A model generated the notes under the pieces. The model saw only the letters and a list, made by a program, of their open reading frames with translations. It did not search any database and was not told where the DNA came from. Shown here one piece after another: positions 9,581-55,293 of a DNA stretch of 64,000 bases (positions are counted from its first letter, which is position 1; each line of letters begins with the position of its first letter). This DNA is from a virus: positions 1-64,000 of the IMG/VR virus record IMGVR_UViG_3300036390_000001. One strand, written 5' to 3'. The position numbers were made by a program, and so were the translations under genes.

Positions 9581-10134
9581 TACTACAGGCGCTGCACTAC
9601 GGCGCCAAGCTTGCCCAAGAAGAATTACACCTTCAAGAATTGGGCATAGCGACACTAACCGCGTGCTTTGTAAATTCCAACCGCGACCCCAAAAAATCAC
9701 AGCCAGCGAAGCCACAGGAATTTTTCTACTTCTGGAAACAGCCCGAAGACGAAGTTCAAATTCCTCCAATTGTTGCCTCTGTATTTTTTGAAATGCTTGC
9801 GGAGAAACTTGTGCCCGGTTGGGTGGTAGCAATGGCGCCTATTGATAAACTACGCAAAGCCAAACCTCAAAACAGTATTAAGCTTTCAGGAATACGCGCG
9901 CTCAGTGGTGATGGGGCATTTTTACTACTTCCGTCATTTGAAGGCGAGAATATTAAGGCGCGCTTGGCTTTTGTTGAGGATGCTACCTGCACAGAGGTGC
10001 GGGATATTGATAGCGGCGCCGTTTATAAGTTGAAGAGTAAAGAATGTCCGGCGCCTTGCTGGATTATTGATGGTGAGTGGTCTATAGTGGGTAAGGCTTC
10101 CACAGAAGTTGATTTAATGGAAACGAAACAATAG
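9460..10134 (+). CDS. Tail assembly chaperone -1 frameshift extension (GT)
   Basis: The -1 frame is open from 9460 (IERGELEEPDWGEIFWRLRKYW...) and continuous with ORF 9640-10134. Confidence 0.8.
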   Translation: MERGELEEPDWGEIFWRLRKYWSNETRFNEENFGNQPTWLILQALHYGAKLAQEELHLQELGIATLTACFVNSNRDPKKSQPAKPQEFFYFWKQPEDEVQIPPIVASVFFEMLAEKLVPGWVVAMAPIDKLRKAKPQNSIKLSGIRALSGDGAFLLLPSFEGENIKARLAFVEDATCTEVRDIDSGAVYKLKSKECPAPCWIIDGEWSIVGKASTEVDLMETKQ

Positions 10135-10142
10135 ATATAACG

Positions 10143-10179
10143 ACAAAAAGGTGCCTAGTAGATGCAGGCACCTTTTTGT
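10143..10179 (+). terminator. Intrinsic terminator
   Basis: ACAAAAAGGTGCCT...AGGCACCTTTTTGT inverted repeat with U-tract. Confidence 0.75.
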
Positions 10180-10419
10180 TTTGAACTATTAATCGCCTAC
10201 TGGCATCACAGGTAAATTAAAAGAGCGATTGAAGTCTAAACTTTAAACTTTAAAACTGCTCAACACTTTGCAGCAATCAAAGGTTGTTTTTAAATATATA
10301 TCGGTGCCGCGTCCACTTGTAGGGCGCTTTAAGTTTTCTTCACGAACAGTTAAAACCACCTTCTGATAAGAAGGTATTCGCCATAGGAACTCTAAACCCG
10401 ACGCAAGTAGTGGCTGGGT

Positions 10420-31807: not shown

Positions 31808-32046
31808 ACCCCGTGACTTTATATAAAGACGGCGCCTGCAAAAAAATTCCAGCAATTGACCATCGCGCTTGGATAAATGCAGGGTGGTCACTGACTGAAA
31901 CTTCACTTACCTTCTTATCAGAAGGTGGTTCGCTAGAAGAAGGCGCCTCTATGACTGAAGGCGAGGAAGTTTTATCAGAAGAAATATCCAACCCACCTTC
32001 TGACAAGAAGGTAGAAACAAATAAGCGCAAATCCCTCAATCAATAA
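31801..32046 (+). CDS. Small hypothetical protein
   Basis: Overlaps the upstream stop; contains two copies of the 18-bp palindrome. Confidence 0.55.
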   Translation: MLDPVTLYKDGACKKIPAIDHRAWINAGWSLTETSLTFLSEGGSLEEGASMTEGEEVLSEEISNPPSDKKVETNKRKSLNQ

Positions 32047-32051
32047 TAGCT

Positions 32052-33809
32052 ATGGCAGAGCCGCTACAAAGCCCTTACAGCAAAGTCAATATTGTTGACG
32101 CTGAAGGCAATTTAGTTAACCTTGGCGGCGGCAGTGGCGATAGTGGTACTACTATTGGTGGCGCCACTGCCGCAAACCAAGTAACCCAAACTCAAGTACT
32201 CCAAAATATTGATGCCGACTTAGGCACCGACATTACTGGCGCCGTGATGCCTGCTGGTGGCGCCGGAGTTAGAGGCTGGTTGTCGGCAATTTATAATTTC
32301 TTATCATCGAGGCTTCCTGCGCTTGTTAGTGGGCGCGTACCTGTTGATGTTGCTTCGCTATCAGTAACGGTTAATAACGCGCAGTTAGAAATTGCCAATG
32401 ATGCCGGCAATCCGATTCCTGTCGATGGCTCGGTTAGTGTAAGCAATTTTCCAGCCACTCAGCCAGTAAGCGGCGCCGTCAGTATTTCTAATTTTCCAGT
32501 TACTCAGCCAGTAAGCGGTGCCGTAAGTATCTCTAATTTCCCCGTTACTCAGCCAGTAAGTGGGACAATTGCTTTTAGTAATACATCAATTGGTGTATCT
32601 TCATTGCCTGCTTTACCCGCTGGCAATAATGCGATAGGCTCGGTTAGTATTTCTAATTTTCCAGCTACTCAACCAATAAGCGGCGCTGTCAGTATTTCTA
32701 ATTTTCCAGCCACTCAACCAATAAGCGGAACCGTAGCAATAAGCAATTCTTCAATCGAAATTGCTAACGACGTGGGCAGCCCGATTCCTGTTAATGGCAG
32801 TGTAAATATTGGTAACTTTCCTACTACCCAAGTAGTTAGTGGAACTGTCGCTATTAGTAATTCTTCAATTGAAATTGCTAATGATGTTGGCAGCCCTATT
32901 TCAATCGGCGGTGTTTACAATGTGACGTCGCCGACTTTAACCAATGGACAGGGCAGCAATATTCAGCTTAGTGTTCGCGGGAATGTATTAATTGATTGTG
33001 TTGATTATGTTAGCTCGCCAACAAACATTCAAGCCGTTGACACTAATTCCACAACATCAATAGGGCAAGATAATCAAGTAATTATTAGAGGCAATCCTAG
33101 CAATAATAGTTTTGCTTCTTATGCCTCTTCTGGTAACAGCAGCTTTGCAATATTAATTGAAAATCAACCTGCCGCAACTCCTTTTGTTGGAACACTACAA
33201 ATCGAGCGTAGCTTAGACGGAAACATCTGGACTTCTATCGGCGCCTTTGTTGCTGGTTCGCGGTTTGTGCGCTCACAAATTACAGCCGAAGCAGTATTGC
33301 ATGGTAATTGTTCAAGCAGCCAATTTCTAAGAGTTCGTGCTATTGCGTGGACTTCAGGAATCGCGCGAGTTACCTTTTTAGCTGGACAAGGGACAGGCAC
33401 GACAACAGTTGGAAACCCGCTGAGAATATTTGACCAAGTTAGCGGCGCCGAGCTAACGATTAAAGCGGCAAATGTATCTGCTACTTCGGCAGACCCCGCT
33501 GTTGTTGTCACTAGTAGAGATAAACCCTCAACGATTAATACTAATATTCCAAATTCTTTTCCAGTTAGCAGTACCGCCAGTGTGATTGCTTTGAATAACG
33601 ACAGAAAAGGATTAACTATTTCTAACCCCCTAGCCTTTGATATTTTCGTAGGGTTTCAATCAACCGTTTCATCCACTTCTTACGCCGTGAAAATTCCTCC
33701 TTCTGATAGCTATGGCTATTGGGAAGCGCCATACAATTACGTAGGAATTATCTCTATCGCAACCGCCACTGGCAATAGTGGAAATATTTTTGTCAGGGAG
33801 CTAATTTAA
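32052..33809 (+). CDS. Fibre-like virion protein with tandem 15-aa repeats
   Basis: SG(A/T)V(S/A)ISNFP(A/V)TQP repeats (45-bp unit) and EIAND(A/V)G.PI repeats. Confidence 0.7.
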   Translation: MAEPLQSPYSKVNIVDAEGNLVNLGGGSGDSGTTIGGATAANQVTQTQVLQNIDADLGTDITGAVMPAGGAGVRGWLSAIYNFLSSRLPALVSGRVPVDVASLSVTVNNAQLEIANDAGNPIPVDGSVSVSNFPATQPVSGAVSISNFPVTQPVSGAVSISNFPVTQPVSGTIAFSNTSIGVSSLPALPAGNNAIGSVSISNFPATQPISGAVSISNFPATQPISGTVAISNSSIEIANDVGSPIPVNGSVNIGNFPTTQVVSGTVAISNSSIEIANDVGSPISIGGVYNVTSPTLTNGQGSNIQLSVRGNVLIDCVDYVSSPTNIQAVDTNSTTSIGQDNQVIIRGNPSNNSFASYASSGNSSFAILIENQPAATPFVGTLQIERSLDGNIWTSIGAFVAGSRFVRSQITAEAVLHGNCSSSQFLRVRAIAWTSGIARVTFLAGQGTGTTTVGNPLRIFDQVSGAELTIKAANVSATSADPAVVVTSRDKPSTINTNIPNSFPVSSTASVIALNNDRKGLTISNPLAFDIFVGFQSTVSSTSYAVKIPPSDSYGYWEAPYNYVGIISIATATGNSGNIFVRELI

Positions 33810-47066: not shown

Positions 47067-47915
47067 ATGACACCACATCTTAACGCCGCGCTTGCAAAAG
47101 CCAAGCTAGAATTTCCTCAGATATTAGCTAACCGTAGAGTTAAAATACCGACTAAATCAGGTCGAGAAATTTCTTTTACCTATGCTGAATTGGAAGAAAT
47201 AGCAGAAGCAGTAACGCCAGTATTAAGCGCGAATGATTTGTCTTTGTCTTCTCAAATGCGCTATTTAGAGAATGGCAAATTTGTCCTCGCTACTGCGCTT
47301 CGTCATGGGTCGGGAGAGTTTATAGAATCCTTCTTTCCATTGCCTGAATCGGTTGGCGACGCCAAGGAACTAGGGATTCAAATCAGTTATGGGCGCCGTT
47401 ACAACGCATTATGCTTACTAGAGATTAGTGTGGTTGAGCCAAGTAATGAGCAGCAATGGCAAGAAAAGAAGCGCAAGATAGCTGGTGAACTTAGACAGGA
47501 AGTTGAGCAGGCGCCGCAGTTATCCGCGAAGCCCAAGAGAGAAAATGGAGGATTGCTTGAGGCTGTTTCAGGAGTGGCGCCTGTTACCCCAAAGCCCTCG
47601 ACTAAGCAAAATGACCGTGTTAGGGCTGTTTGTGTTCAGATAAACTACCCTATGGAACTCGCGCGCGAGTGGTTGGCTAAATTTAGTCTAAAATCATTTG
47701 ACCAGTTACCGTTGCAGGCTGTTGACGACTATATCAAAAACATATGCGCTGCTTGGGCAAGTCAAAACGGCATGAACGAACACCATGCCAAGCGCAGTTA
47801 TGAAAAGCGCGTGGTTGGTCAACCTGACGAAATCAAGGCAATTGCTAGCTGGATGGAGTACGTAAGCTCTATTAATCTGGATGAGAAAGACTTAGTGGAG
47901 GCGCCTGCATCATGA
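47067..47915 (+). CDS. ERF-family single-strand annealing protein
   Basis: F.YA.LEEI, L.H.SGEFIES, G..ISYGRRY. Confidence 0.87.
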   Translation: MTPHLNAALAKAKLEFPQILANRRVKIPTKSGREISFTYAELEEIAEAVTPVLSANDLSLSSQMRYLENGKFVLATALRHGSGEFIESFFPLPESVGDAKELGIQISYGRRYNALCLLEISVVEPSNEQQWQEKKRKIAGELRQEVEQAPQLSAKPKRENGGLLEAVSGVAPVTPKPSTKQNDRVRAVCVQINYPMELAREWLAKFSLKSFDQLPLQAVDDYIKNICAAWASQNGMNEHHAKRSYEKRVVGQPDEIKAIASWMEYVSSINLDEKDLVEAPAS

Positions 47916-48385
47916 AAATCATCACTCTTCATCAGCCTTGGGCGCATCTCATCGCCATAGGTTACAAACACTACGAAACGCGCTCTTGGCACACCAAATA
48001 TAGAGGTGCCTTGGCTATCCACTCAGCCAAGCGCCCGGTTTCACTTGAAGAGCTAGCGCGTATTTCTAATGAGAGCGCTGGAACTTTAGATTTAAATTTT
48101 CTGACAGCGCTTAACTACGAATACGGAAAGATTGTCGTCGTTGCCGAGTTGACTGATTGTCTTGCAATGGTTGATAAGCATCATCCTGGGCGCCTTGACT
48201 CAACGATTAAAGTCTCCTCTGTTTCAGCGCTAGAAAAAGCCTGTGGAGATTGGCGCGCTGGGCGTTATGCTTGGGAGCTAAAGGATATCAAGAAGCTTGA
48301 TGCGCCGATTCCTTATAAAGGGCGCCAGGGCTTGATGAATGTTGATGGCGCCACTGCTGCATTGCTGTCAAAGTCTTGCGGGTGA
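47912..48385 (+). CDS. ASCH domain protein
   Basis: ITLHQPWA.LI..G.K.YETRSW.T.YRG.LAIH; PIP.KG.QGL. Confidence 0.92.
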   Translation: MKIITLHQPWAHLIAIGYKHYETRSWHTKYRGALAIHSAKRPVSLEELARISNESAGTLDLNFLTALNYEYGKIVVVAELTDCLAMVDKHHPGRLDSTIKVSSVSALEKACGDWRAGRYAWELKDIKKLDAPIPYKGRQGLMNVDGATAALLSKSCG

Positions 48386-48467
48386 AGCTTTACCCGCAGA
48401 GCTTTGACTGGAAGAAGAGTATTCCAGGCGCCTTGTATAATTCAAATTAAATTAAGGAGCAACAAAG

Positions 48468-48770
48468 ATGACTACTTATAACGTAAATTTTGACGAATCG
48501 ACTTCAGTTTTAACAATAGGCTTTGGCGAACCAGCTAATAACGACCAAATTGTTAAAGATGCCGTTGCAGGAATCAAGCAAATTAAAGAACAGTTGCATG
48601 GCGCGGTTCTTAAAGTCAATGGCGCCGCATCCCTTCCCGTTGGCTTTGCTCTTTCCGCTGAATTGGCGCACGTTGTCAAAGCAATTGCGGTGTTCGACCC
48701 AAAACTAAAGCAGTATGTTGTGGCTGTAACTCATGACCCTAGTTACTCAATTGGCGCCTTGATTGACTAA
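48468..48770 (+). CDS. csx3: Csx3/Crn3-family ring nuclease homologue
   Basis: GFGEPA.NDQIVKDA...LKVNG.AS...LAH....IAVFDPKL..YVVAVTH.P.Y.IG; AAGGAG RBS. Confidence 0.85.
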   Translation: MTTYNVNFDESTSVLTIGFGEPANNDQIVKDAVAGIKQIKEQLHGAVLKVNGAASLPVGFALSAELAHVVKAIAVFDPKLKQYVVAVTHDPSYSIGALID

Positions 48771-48781
48771 GTAAAGCGCCT

Positions 48782-48845
48782 GTTCAGTTAGTAAAACAAA
48801 TTCAAAAGGGATTGAAACCGCATTAAAATACTTTCAATCCCTTTT
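48782..48845 (+). repeat. Solitary CRISPR-repeat-like 37-mer overlapping a terminator hairpin
   Basis: GTTCAG...GGGATTGAAAC (37 nt); inverted repeat AAAAGGGATTGAAA/TTTCAATCCCTTTT. Confidence 0.4.
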
Positions 48846-48854
48846 TAGTGAACT

Positions 48855-49202
48855 ATGGATAGCAAAATTTTTTATCGTATTGAAGAGTTAGCGCTATTGA
48901 TTGAAAAATTCCGCGCGCTTGATGGCAAAGACCAAGAGTGGTTGCGCGATTTATTCAAAGGCGACCGCACGATTATCTCATGTTTAGAAATTCTTGATTT
49001 AATTGAGAATAAATCTTTGAGTTATTACGAATTAGCGAATATCATGGGATGCTCGCCGGAAACGGTTAAGCAGAAGCTCAATGCCATGATATCTGGGGGA
49101 ATTGCTATAAATCAATCGCGCAGGAAGTACAAGGCGCCGCGCGGTGGCAGACCAAGAAAGCTTTGTAATAAACCTTCGGATACGAAGGTGAGTGTTTTAT
49201 AG
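48855..49202 (+). CDS. HTH protein
   Basis: LSY.ELA.IMG.S.ETV.Q.L; GGRP. Confidence 0.6.
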   Translation: MDSKIFYRIEELALLIEKFRALDGKDQEWLRDLFKGDRTIISCLEILDLIENKSLSYYELANIMGCSPETVKQKLNAMISGGIAINQSRRKYKAPRGGRPRKLCNKPSDTKVSVL

Positions 49203-49301
49203 CAAACCTGAATAATATAAGCGCAAGCGCTGAAACCCTTGTAACTGCGTAGTTAAAGTGTTTTAGCACTAATTTTTGTTTGGGATGCGGGCGCCGTTGT
49301 T

Positions 49302-49637
49302 CTAATTTTGATTATTAATACCTTCCCAGTCTTTGCAAAATATTCCAGGCGCGCCTTCTGGGTGTACCGCGCAGTTAATGCCGCATTGTCCGTGGTAAAA
49401 TTTGCAACCAATACAGGCGCGCGGTTTTATCATTGAGCGCGGTGAGTCGAACTCTTCTATCAGTATTTCCAAGAGGGAGAAGCAGCCACCAACGATTAGG
49501 CAGGCGCCTCCAATAGACAGCGTGCTTACAGCGAGGTCGCGCTTAAAGTTGCTGTTTGGTAGTAGTAAGGAGATGGCGCCGATTATTGTAATTGCGGCGC
49601 CGAACCATGTCATTTTTGTAGTGGGTTCTTTGTACAT
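49302..49637 (-). CDS. Membrane protein with Cys-rich C-terminus (DUF6464-like)
   Basis: Two TM helices; C.GC.FY.....CAVHP.G....C.DWE. Confidence 0.6.
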   Translation of the reverse strand: MYKEPTTKMTWFGAAITIIGAISLLLPNSNFKRDLAVSTLSIGGACLIVGGCFSLLEILIEEFDSPRSMIKPRACIGCKFYHGQCGINCAVHPEGAPGIFCKDWEGINNQN

Positions 49638-54866: not shown

Positions 54867-55181
54867 GTGCAGATGTGGAATCTTGATAAATTAATTGAAT
54901 CCCTGAAGTTTAGGGACGCGCTGGACAAAATCATTGATAAGCGTCCTGGTGTTTCCCGTCTGCCGGCACAGCTATACTTACGACTTATTGTCGCGTCAAT
55001 TGCTACCAACAAAGACATTAGTGGAGTCATCTCAACCGCGCTAGAGACTTATGCTATGCGAAATGAGCAAAAGCATTTTGACGAAATAAAGATAAAAGCT
55101 GCCGCCGCAGGAATGGAGTTAGAAGAGTTCTTGGCAGAAGAAGTTGTGCGGCGCATTAAAAAGGGCACCGACACGGATTAA
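54867..55181 (+). CDS. Hypothetical (RHH-like) protein
   Basis: Divergent from the HTH gene. Confidence 0.5.
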   Translation: MQMWNLDKLIESLKFRDALDKIIDKRPGVSRLPAQLYLRLIVASIATNKDISGVISTALETYAMRNEQKHFDEIKIKAAAAGMELEEFLAEEVVRRIKKGTDTD

Positions 55182-55293
55182 CCGATTCTCCTAGCTAATA
55201 GATAACGCACCTCTCTTAGAAAACAGAGGGGTGCGCGGTTGATTTAATGATTAATTTGATTTTAGTTCATGGCTATCTTGCACAGCCGTAAAG

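Follow-up and report, generated by a model that had tools for sequence, protein, structure and literature searches.

A Csx3-family protein encoded by a putative temperate cyanobacterial phage: a predicted interceptor of the type III CRISPR messenger cA4

The cellular relatives of the 100-residue protein considered here sit in type III-D CRISPR loci, and the location of its gene on an apparent phage genome raises the question of whether it acts against the type III system of the phage's host. The stretch of DNA analysed (the window, 64,000 nucleotides) comprises bases 1–64000 of contig C13 (74,115 bp), in an assembly of 8.66 Mb and 91 contigs. A first-pass annotation had described the gene product as a stand-alone Csx3 (Crn3) ring nuclease and a candidate anti-CRISPR, presumed to have been captured from a host. 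Its description of the locus is sound: the ORF starts with ATG and has a strong ribosome binding site, and it lies in an early recombination setting, downstream of genes matching the ERF and ASCH families (Table 1).

Table 1. Features of the csx3 region (positions are those of the window)
Feature	Position	Strand	Basis or remarks
ERF-type annealing protein gene	47067-47915		PF04404, phrog_2324
ASCH protein gene	47912-48385		PF04266
Accessory cassette (csx3, hairpin and HTH gene)	48386..49300	+	flanked by ASCH and a convergent membrane-protein gene
Extended -10-like element TGTATAAT	48434..48441	+	direct reading, in the 82-bp gap 3' of ASCH
Shine-Dalgarno AAGGAG	48454..48459	+	8 nt 5' of ATG
csx3-like gene, 100 aa	48468..48770	+	ORF, PF09620, full-length homologues, AF2 model
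Terminator-like hairpin	48804..48846	+	perfect 14-bp stem, 14-nt loop, T run at end
Putative helix-turn-helix protein gene, 115 aa	48855..49202	+	directly 3' of the csx3 hairpin
Membrane-protein gene	49302-49637		convergent to the cassette

From its gene content and ends we take C13 to be a temperate, siphovirus-like phage genome. Positions 1–127 are identical to 73989–74115, an exact terminal overlap of 127 bp that indicates a circular or circularly permuted element of about 73,988 bp, and the GC content is 43.9% as against about 39% in the other (host) contigs. The contig encodes a portal, a head protein, a 2786-aa tape-measure protein, a DnaD-like replication initiator, a DNA methylase, a tyrosine integrase and a second integrase-like gene, and the nearest relatives of the portal, at about 35% identity, are those of the cyanosiphoviruses S-CBS2, S-CRES and PSS2. 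Anti-CRISPRs are encoded by viruses or other mobile elements, and this csx3 gene lies on a circle with structural genes and an integrase. The annotation had also reported that the window lacks cas genes and arrays, and this holds for the whole 74-kb contig, which we searched for arrays, Cas10 and RAMP proteins; the phage copy thus stands apart from the association with type III loci that is a trait of its family. According to its listing the sample is a metagenome-type run, and the gene could in principle be an ordinary CRISPR accessory gene on a plasmid or on a mis-binned cellular fragment. We consider this very improbable in the face of the structural genes and integrase on a 74-kb circle, the lack of any cas gene or array on C13, and the host spacers with a PAM that target it (see below). 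Elsewhere in the assembly we found no integrated copy of C13, only remnants on contig C80 with 68–74% nucleotide identity to it. These C13-like stretches (C80:95276-96551 and 107120-115244) are situated between host CRISPR arrays, and resemble what a related prophage would leave behind within the CRISPR-cas supercluster.

The claimed match to cyanobacterial Csx3 is borne out by full-length homologues that are 45–57% identical, well beyond chance. Sixty full-length homologues were recovered at E values of 1e-11 to 1e-47, many of them named Csx3, and phmmer gave full-length links to proteins of that name at E 1e-23 to 1e-26. Homologues named Csx3 occur in Anabaena, Nodularia, Trichormus and CPR bacteria, and the family amounts to 261 clusters (50% identity, E<=1e-3) with tandem and fused forms among them. 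The profile search that the annotation had proposed as a check gave a divided answer: PF09620 scored 24.6 bits against a cut-off of 21, with the match confined to residues 66–99 of the 100, whereas TIGR02579 scored 18.8 against 55.4, a cut-off set at equivalog level. No PHROGs family was found for the protein. A phmmer search of the PDB with the single protein gave no match, and a profile built from 50 sequences reached AfCsx3 (AF_1864) at E 1e-3.

Structural comparison leads to the same family. The AlphaFold2 model has a pLDDT of 96 and a pTM of 0.85, and the best PDB matches in Foldseek are all AfCsx3 (probability 1.00, TM 0.63). With VIA-align the model superposes on AfCsx3 3wzg with Z 11.2 and an rmsd of 1.9 A over 90 aligned residues, and on the cA4 complex 6yud with Z 11.0; the figures for the AfCsx3 structures as a set (3WZG, 3WZI, 6YUD, 6VJG) are Z ~11 and 1.9–2.0 A over ~90 residues. 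The protein has the Csx3/Crn3 fold, with a beta-alpha-beta core distantly akin to CARF and STAS domains, and is a member of that family. The runner-up after Csx3 in the VIA-align list is the cA4-binding C-terminal domain of the type III effector Cat1 (9mud, residues 144–257; Z 9.5), with ordinary CARF and SAVED domains ranking far lower.

A dimer model had also been put forward as a check on the annotation, and the homodimer was predicted with an ipSAE of 0.91, the best control reaching 0.05; the mark applied is one attained by 20/30 solved homo-pairs and by 1/23 single chains. Contact agreement among the runs is at least 96%, and the pLDDT of the partner is at least 94. The modelled contacts centre on residues 52–64, with the 63:63 contact on the axis, and residues 59–64 lie along the two-fold axis in a position comparable to that of H57 and H60 of AfCsx3. 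The predicted two-fold arrangement through the central helix is that of AfCsx3, and the D-P-(R/K) motif is retained. The agreement of the dimer model may mirror likeness only, because the AfCsx3 dimer has already been solved.

We know of no member of the cyanobacterial Csx3 branch that has been assayed, and residues were mapped by profile alignment to AfCsx3 together with family alignments. The three active-site residues that the annotation had aligned by eye all map as claimed (H68 to H60, D77 to D69 and H89 to H80 of AfCsx3), and further equivalents are K79 for R71 and G52 for G45. Lysine occupies the R71 position in about 90% of the cyanobacterial branch, a conservative change, so that H68, D77, K79 and H89 supply the equivalents of H60, D69, R71 and H80. 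In AfCsx3 the H60A and D69A substitutions abolish cA4 cleavage, and R71A and H80A reduce it strongly (PMC7371418). What the annotation missed is that the equivalent of H57 is Ala64. H57, termed 'absolutely conserved', is with H60 a proposed Mn2+ ligand (PMC7371418); the H57A variant is described, in a summary of Yan 2015 given by PMC7371418, as lowering RNA cleavage without abolishing it. Histidine is found at all three positions (H57, H60 and H80) in 273 of 302 distinct family sequences, and the triad is complete in 80/80 homologues from cellular genomes and in 79/80 metagenome loci, the exception being the phage-like L052. The phage protein thus shares fold and homology with Csx3/Crn3 and departs from the canonical active site. 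Of the label 'ring nuclease', then, the fold and family part stands, and the implied intact active site does not; because the H57 equivalent is histidine in every one of the 80 cellular homologues and alanine here, the label may overstate catalysis. The alanine may slow the turnover of cA4 or change the metal site. The residues of the D face (D77, P78, K79, G52 and S55) are all retained.

The alanine is not peculiar to this protein. In the tree the window copy groups with five other sequences in a clade (SH-like support 97) whose members have Ala or Ser in place of H57; two of the six, P0005 and P0009, lack the equivalents of H60 and H80 as well. P0009, the only relative for which a long contig is recorded, sits on a contig of 73,986 bp, a length close to that of the 73,988-bp phage circle. 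Scans of IMG/VR with the single proteins P0009 and P0002 gave no match. A second lineage (L008, L009, L010 and L052) comes from 74–83-kb contigs in IMG/VR and metagenomes, with csx3 at 10001–10303 of each locus and portal, DnaB and methyltransferase genes nearby. Here the H57 and H60 positions are Lys and Ala respectively, which makes this Csx3 a naturally occurring parallel to the inactive H60A variant of AfCsx3. Two alleles of the lineage differ at 17 nucleotides with a dN/dS of 0.11, and the protein without these histidines is therefore under purifying selection. The phage copies thus have in common a modified H face, and they retain the cA4-binding D face.

The annotation had asked whether phage copies form a clade. 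The clade around the window copy is supported, but the phage-like L008 lineage stands separate from it, and the five Csx3-bearing contigs found in IMG/VR occupy at least four positions in the tree, which argues for recurrent, hitherto undescribed acquisition of Csx3 by mobile elements. One of the loci from IMG/VR, on a 154-kb contig (L011:10001-10681), encodes a 226-aa fusion of an N-terminal Csx3 domain to an unknown C-terminal half; its Csx3 domain has the full His triad, and a DarB-like antirestriction gene (phrog_10089, E 3e-214) lies 5 kb away. That the phage gene was captured from its host is not demonstrable from the tree, as identity between the clade and any cellular copy does not exceed 56% and no donor lineage could be identified in a 103-column tree in which most deep forks are open.

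These substitutions bring up an alternative in which the phage protein is a cA4 sponge or filament former, catalysis having been traded for sequestration: dimers stacked on either side of cA4, the arrangement seen in the crystal of AfCsx3 H60A, would keep it from the effector. The complex with cA4 (6yud) is itself of the H60A variant (PMC7371418), and the idea would account for a triad that is invariant in cells and altered both in the window clade and in the L008 lineage, for selection on the Lys/Ala protein, and for the retained D face. The window protein, however, keeps H68 and H89, the H57A change in AfCsx3 only lessened RNA cleavage in the summary cited above, the phage location of P0002–P0005 and P0009 is only putative, and the cOA output of type III systems is large and has been argued to defeat sponging (PMC13148439). 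We regard the sponge as rather unlikely for the window protein. A bolder version, to which we would give a little credence though we do not expect it to be right, is that phages repeatedly took Csx3 and stripped it of its metal-binding histidines, yielding a protein that no longer cleaves cA4 but traps it by polymerising around it; the window protein would be an intermediate, and P0005, P0009 and the L008 lineage the end state. If true, type III CRISPR signalling would thereby have its first inhibitor of the sponge type.

Whether there is a signal to intercept depends on the host, which XisF and HetL-like genes indicate to be a heterocystous cyanobacterium. It has one type III locus (C80:78211-89523), to which every RAMP match maps, consisting of genes for a TIGR03986 RAMP, Csx19, a two-domain Cas7, Csx10, a small Cas7, a Cas10 of 546 aa in which the GGDD motif is intact, and a divergent WYL protein. 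A 429-aa protein encoded beside Cas10 has a Card1_endonuc domain and matches PDB 8q3y at 1.6e-22, and also Can2 (7bdv). By gene content the locus has a type III-Dv-like architecture with a Can2/Card1-like effector; a Cas10 with GGDD and a neighbour of this kind are the makings of a host cOA pathway. Enzymes of the Can2/Card1 family are activated by cA4. In Synechocystis, a III-Dv complex makes cOA that activates Csx1 (PMC11026444). By analogy with that complex and with the effector family, the messenger in this host would be cA4. Searches of the host genome for PF09455 and PF09651 gave no match, the control for the latter likewise being without one.

In six other genomes the corresponding locus reads WYL - Csx3 - Card1-like - Cas10 - Cas7 - Csx10 - Cas7-2x - Csx19 - RAMP, and of 200 genomes sampled from the host's family, 104 have Csx3 homologues. 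In the assembly studied here no csx3 was found at the III-Dv locus or elsewhere, the phage copy apart. Since orthologous loci have Csx3 and this host does without, the phage brings along the natural partner regulator of the host's own system. In many genomes of that family the cellular locus pairs a stand-alone Csx3 of about 100 aa with an immediately downstream gene for a protein of about 310 aa, which begins with another Csx3 domain (e.g. G134:C1:5029443-5030110) and may be the known Csx3-AAA fusion.

Three host spacers match C13, one over 32/32 positions (in the methylase gene), one over 36/40, and one that is degenerate. They are situated at C80:55468-55499, ~55169-55207 and ~97776-97816, with targets at C13 71338-71369 and 65087-65126, both beyond the end of the window, and at window positions 32039-32077, respectively. 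With the arrays oriented so that the repeat ends in ...GGGACTGAAAC, all three protospacers have a 5'-GTA flank, which we take to be a type I-D-like PAM, and the crRNAs are in the same sense as the local mRNAs. The matching arrays adjoin type I-MYXAN and I-D modules. Because of the GTA PAM and the mRNA-sense crRNAs, the three spacers look like type I spacers; they indicate that this type of phage infects the host lineage, which is a separate matter from targeting by type III. In the array next to the III-Dv locus no spacer matches the phage, and the same was true of arrays across 165 related loci. All six arrays of C80 share a repeat hairpin and 3' handle, and it is possible on that ground that the III-Dv complex uses their crRNAs. 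One assembly contains both the circular phage and a perfect, PAM-bearing spacer against it, a hint that the phage has an anti-type I function at some other locus, or that the culture was mixed.

The surroundings of csx3 suggest that it belongs to an accessory unit. A related prophage in a genome of the same genus (L195) has the order ERF - ASCH - homologue of the membrane-protein gene, with 58–62% identity to C13 in ERF and 64% in ASCH, and neither csx3 nor the HTH gene is found between its ASCH and membrane-protein genes. The extra segment in C13 is 0.9 kb long and carries the -10-like TGTATAAT, the strong Shine-Dalgarno sequence and the hairpin with its T run. No good -35 accompanies TGTATAAT (TTGACT is found 26 nt upstream of it), and a consensus promoter scan omits it for that reason; we nevertheless treat it as a candidate promoter of the cassette's own. 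The hairpin has a predicted energy of -17.5 kcal/mol (z -2.9). Downstream of it, the 115-aa ORF matches seven Pfam families of HTH domains with E values from 3e-4 to 4e-3, every one below the cut-off, and has a weak sigma-factor match in PHROGs. By analogy the layout of the cassette is moron-like and acr-aca-like: csx3 is variably present, being gone from the syntenic site in L195, and a small ORF with weak HTH matches follows it, placed as an aca gene would be in an acr-aca pair, so an Aca-like role might be imagined for it.

Both arms of the hairpin contain AAGGGATTGAAAC, at window positions 48806-48818 (+) and 48831-48843 (-). In its 5' arm form this sequence equals the last 13 nt of the CRISPR repeats that the host carries on C87, C77 and C38, that is, the 3' arm of the repeat hairpin plus the 8-nt crRNA handle, and two such matches were found against a chance expectation of 0.14. 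The likeness could be a coincidence or a mimic of the repeat or tag. A reading of the terminator arm as an RNA anti-CRISPR or solitary repeat unit was considered and set aside, as the match spans 13–15 nt only.

A temperate phage with a tyrosine integrase and a second integrase-like gene, carrying a cassette with its own promoter-like element and terminator as prophage-expressed morons do, could instead use Csx3 to help lysogeny: the prophage would supply the off switch that orthologous III-Dv loci have and this host's locus lacks, damping the cA4 response to leaky prophage transcription and thereby permitting mutual tolerance between lysogen and prophage. This seems to us quite unlikely, as C13 was assembled as a free circle with no integrated copy in the assembly and csx3 sits among early recombination genes; the biochemical action would moreover be that of our preferred explanation, from which it differs in timing and beneficiary alone. 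The altered His face, the 17–20% identity to the assayed archaeal enzyme and the HTH gene downstream leave room for another ligand or role, such as binding of cA3, cA6 or SAM-AMP, action on RNA, or a cA4 sensor feeding the HTH neighbour. AfCsx3 was first described as an Mn-dependent deadenylase, and the cA4-sensing domain of Cat1 has the same fold. Against these stand the link of the family to III-D loci with cA4-type Can2/Card1-like effectors, the lack of an RNA-metabolism context, and the present view of RNA cleavage by Csx3 as a side activity of a ring nuclease (PMC7371418), and we give such roles a slender chance.

Our preferred reading, which we hold with slightly better than even confidence, is that phage Csx3 is a cA4 ring nuclease directed against the host type III system, as predicted from its sequence and model; put more generally, it would be an interceptor of cA4, probably as a nuclease and possibly as a sponge. 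Following recognition of a phage transcript by the host III-Dv complex, the GGDD Cas10 would make cA4, and this would activate the Can2/Card1-like nuclease whose gene adjoins cas10. The phage Csx3 homodimer is predicted to bind cA4 on its Asp77/Lys79 face, and a second dimer, stacked head-to-tail, would present the His68/His89 face as in AfCsx3. The ring would then be cut with a metal ion to linear A2-P, or would at least be held, and the effector would stay off. Binding, cleavage and protection are all predicted steps of this scheme, and for AcrIII-1 the protection conferred by natively expressed viral ring nucleases is disputed, according to the account of Martinez-Alvarez 2025 in PMC12751052.

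A Csx3 of phage origin was previously unreported. Our tblastn search of 50,697 deposited phage genomes with the protein gave no match, a fold search of BFVD found no viral protein of the Csx3 fold at E<=1e-3, and no paper was found in a literature search pairing Csx3 with cyanophage. In 28,114 phage genomes searched with profiles for Crn1-3, Csx15, Csx16 and Csx20, Hoikkala et al. found AcrIII-1, Csx20 and Csx16 only (PMC12409355). The chromosomal Csx3 proteins of III-D and III-Dv loci in, among others, Anabaena, Nodularia and Cylindrospermum are 45–56% identical to the phage protein, have the same stand-alone form of about 100 aa, and accompany the same system as that of the window's host (III-Dv with Can2/Card1-like and WYL proteins); they adjoin cas genes and have the full His triad (80/80), whereas the phage copy belongs to a separate clade. 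AfCsx3, with H57 and R71 where the phage protein has Ala and Lys, has been assayed biochemically, whereas the protein described here is phage-encoded, lies outside any type III locus and is known from sequence and model.

To our knowledge, the only viral ring-nuclease folds proven as type III anti-CRISPRs are AcrIII-1 (DUF1874) and AcrIII-2 (viral SAVED). The job proposed for phage Csx3, that of a small viral protein removing cA4 and so disarming whatever type III effector depends on it, is the same as theirs. AcrIII-2 binds cA4 in a sandwich of subunits and derives from a scavenged domain of host defence, both of which are likewise proposed for phage Csx3. The fold of AcrIII-1 is unrelated and that of AcrIII-2 (9r8s) distant (Z 4.7), and both are biochemically proven, whereas the activity of phage Csx3 is predicted. 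If the histidine losses matter, the phage Csx3 lineages would sequester their ligand in the manner of the Acb2 and Tad1/Tad2 sponges, which differ in fold and act on CBASS and Thoeris signals. Csx15, of another fold and not found in phages, is a good cA4 sponge and a slow ring nuclease that forms head-to-tail stacks with cA4.

As a predicted inhibitor, phage Csx3 would add an off switch for cA4-based CRISPR diagnostics, and would serve as a marker of anti-defence islands in cyanophages. It offers a natural pairing, in which a phage with Csx3 faces a host that holds spacers against it and has a III-Dv and Can2/Card1-like system without a Csx3 of its own. The contrast between phage and cellular copies at the catalytic histidines makes it a testable question whether type III signalling may be beaten by sequestration of the messenger rather than by its degradation.
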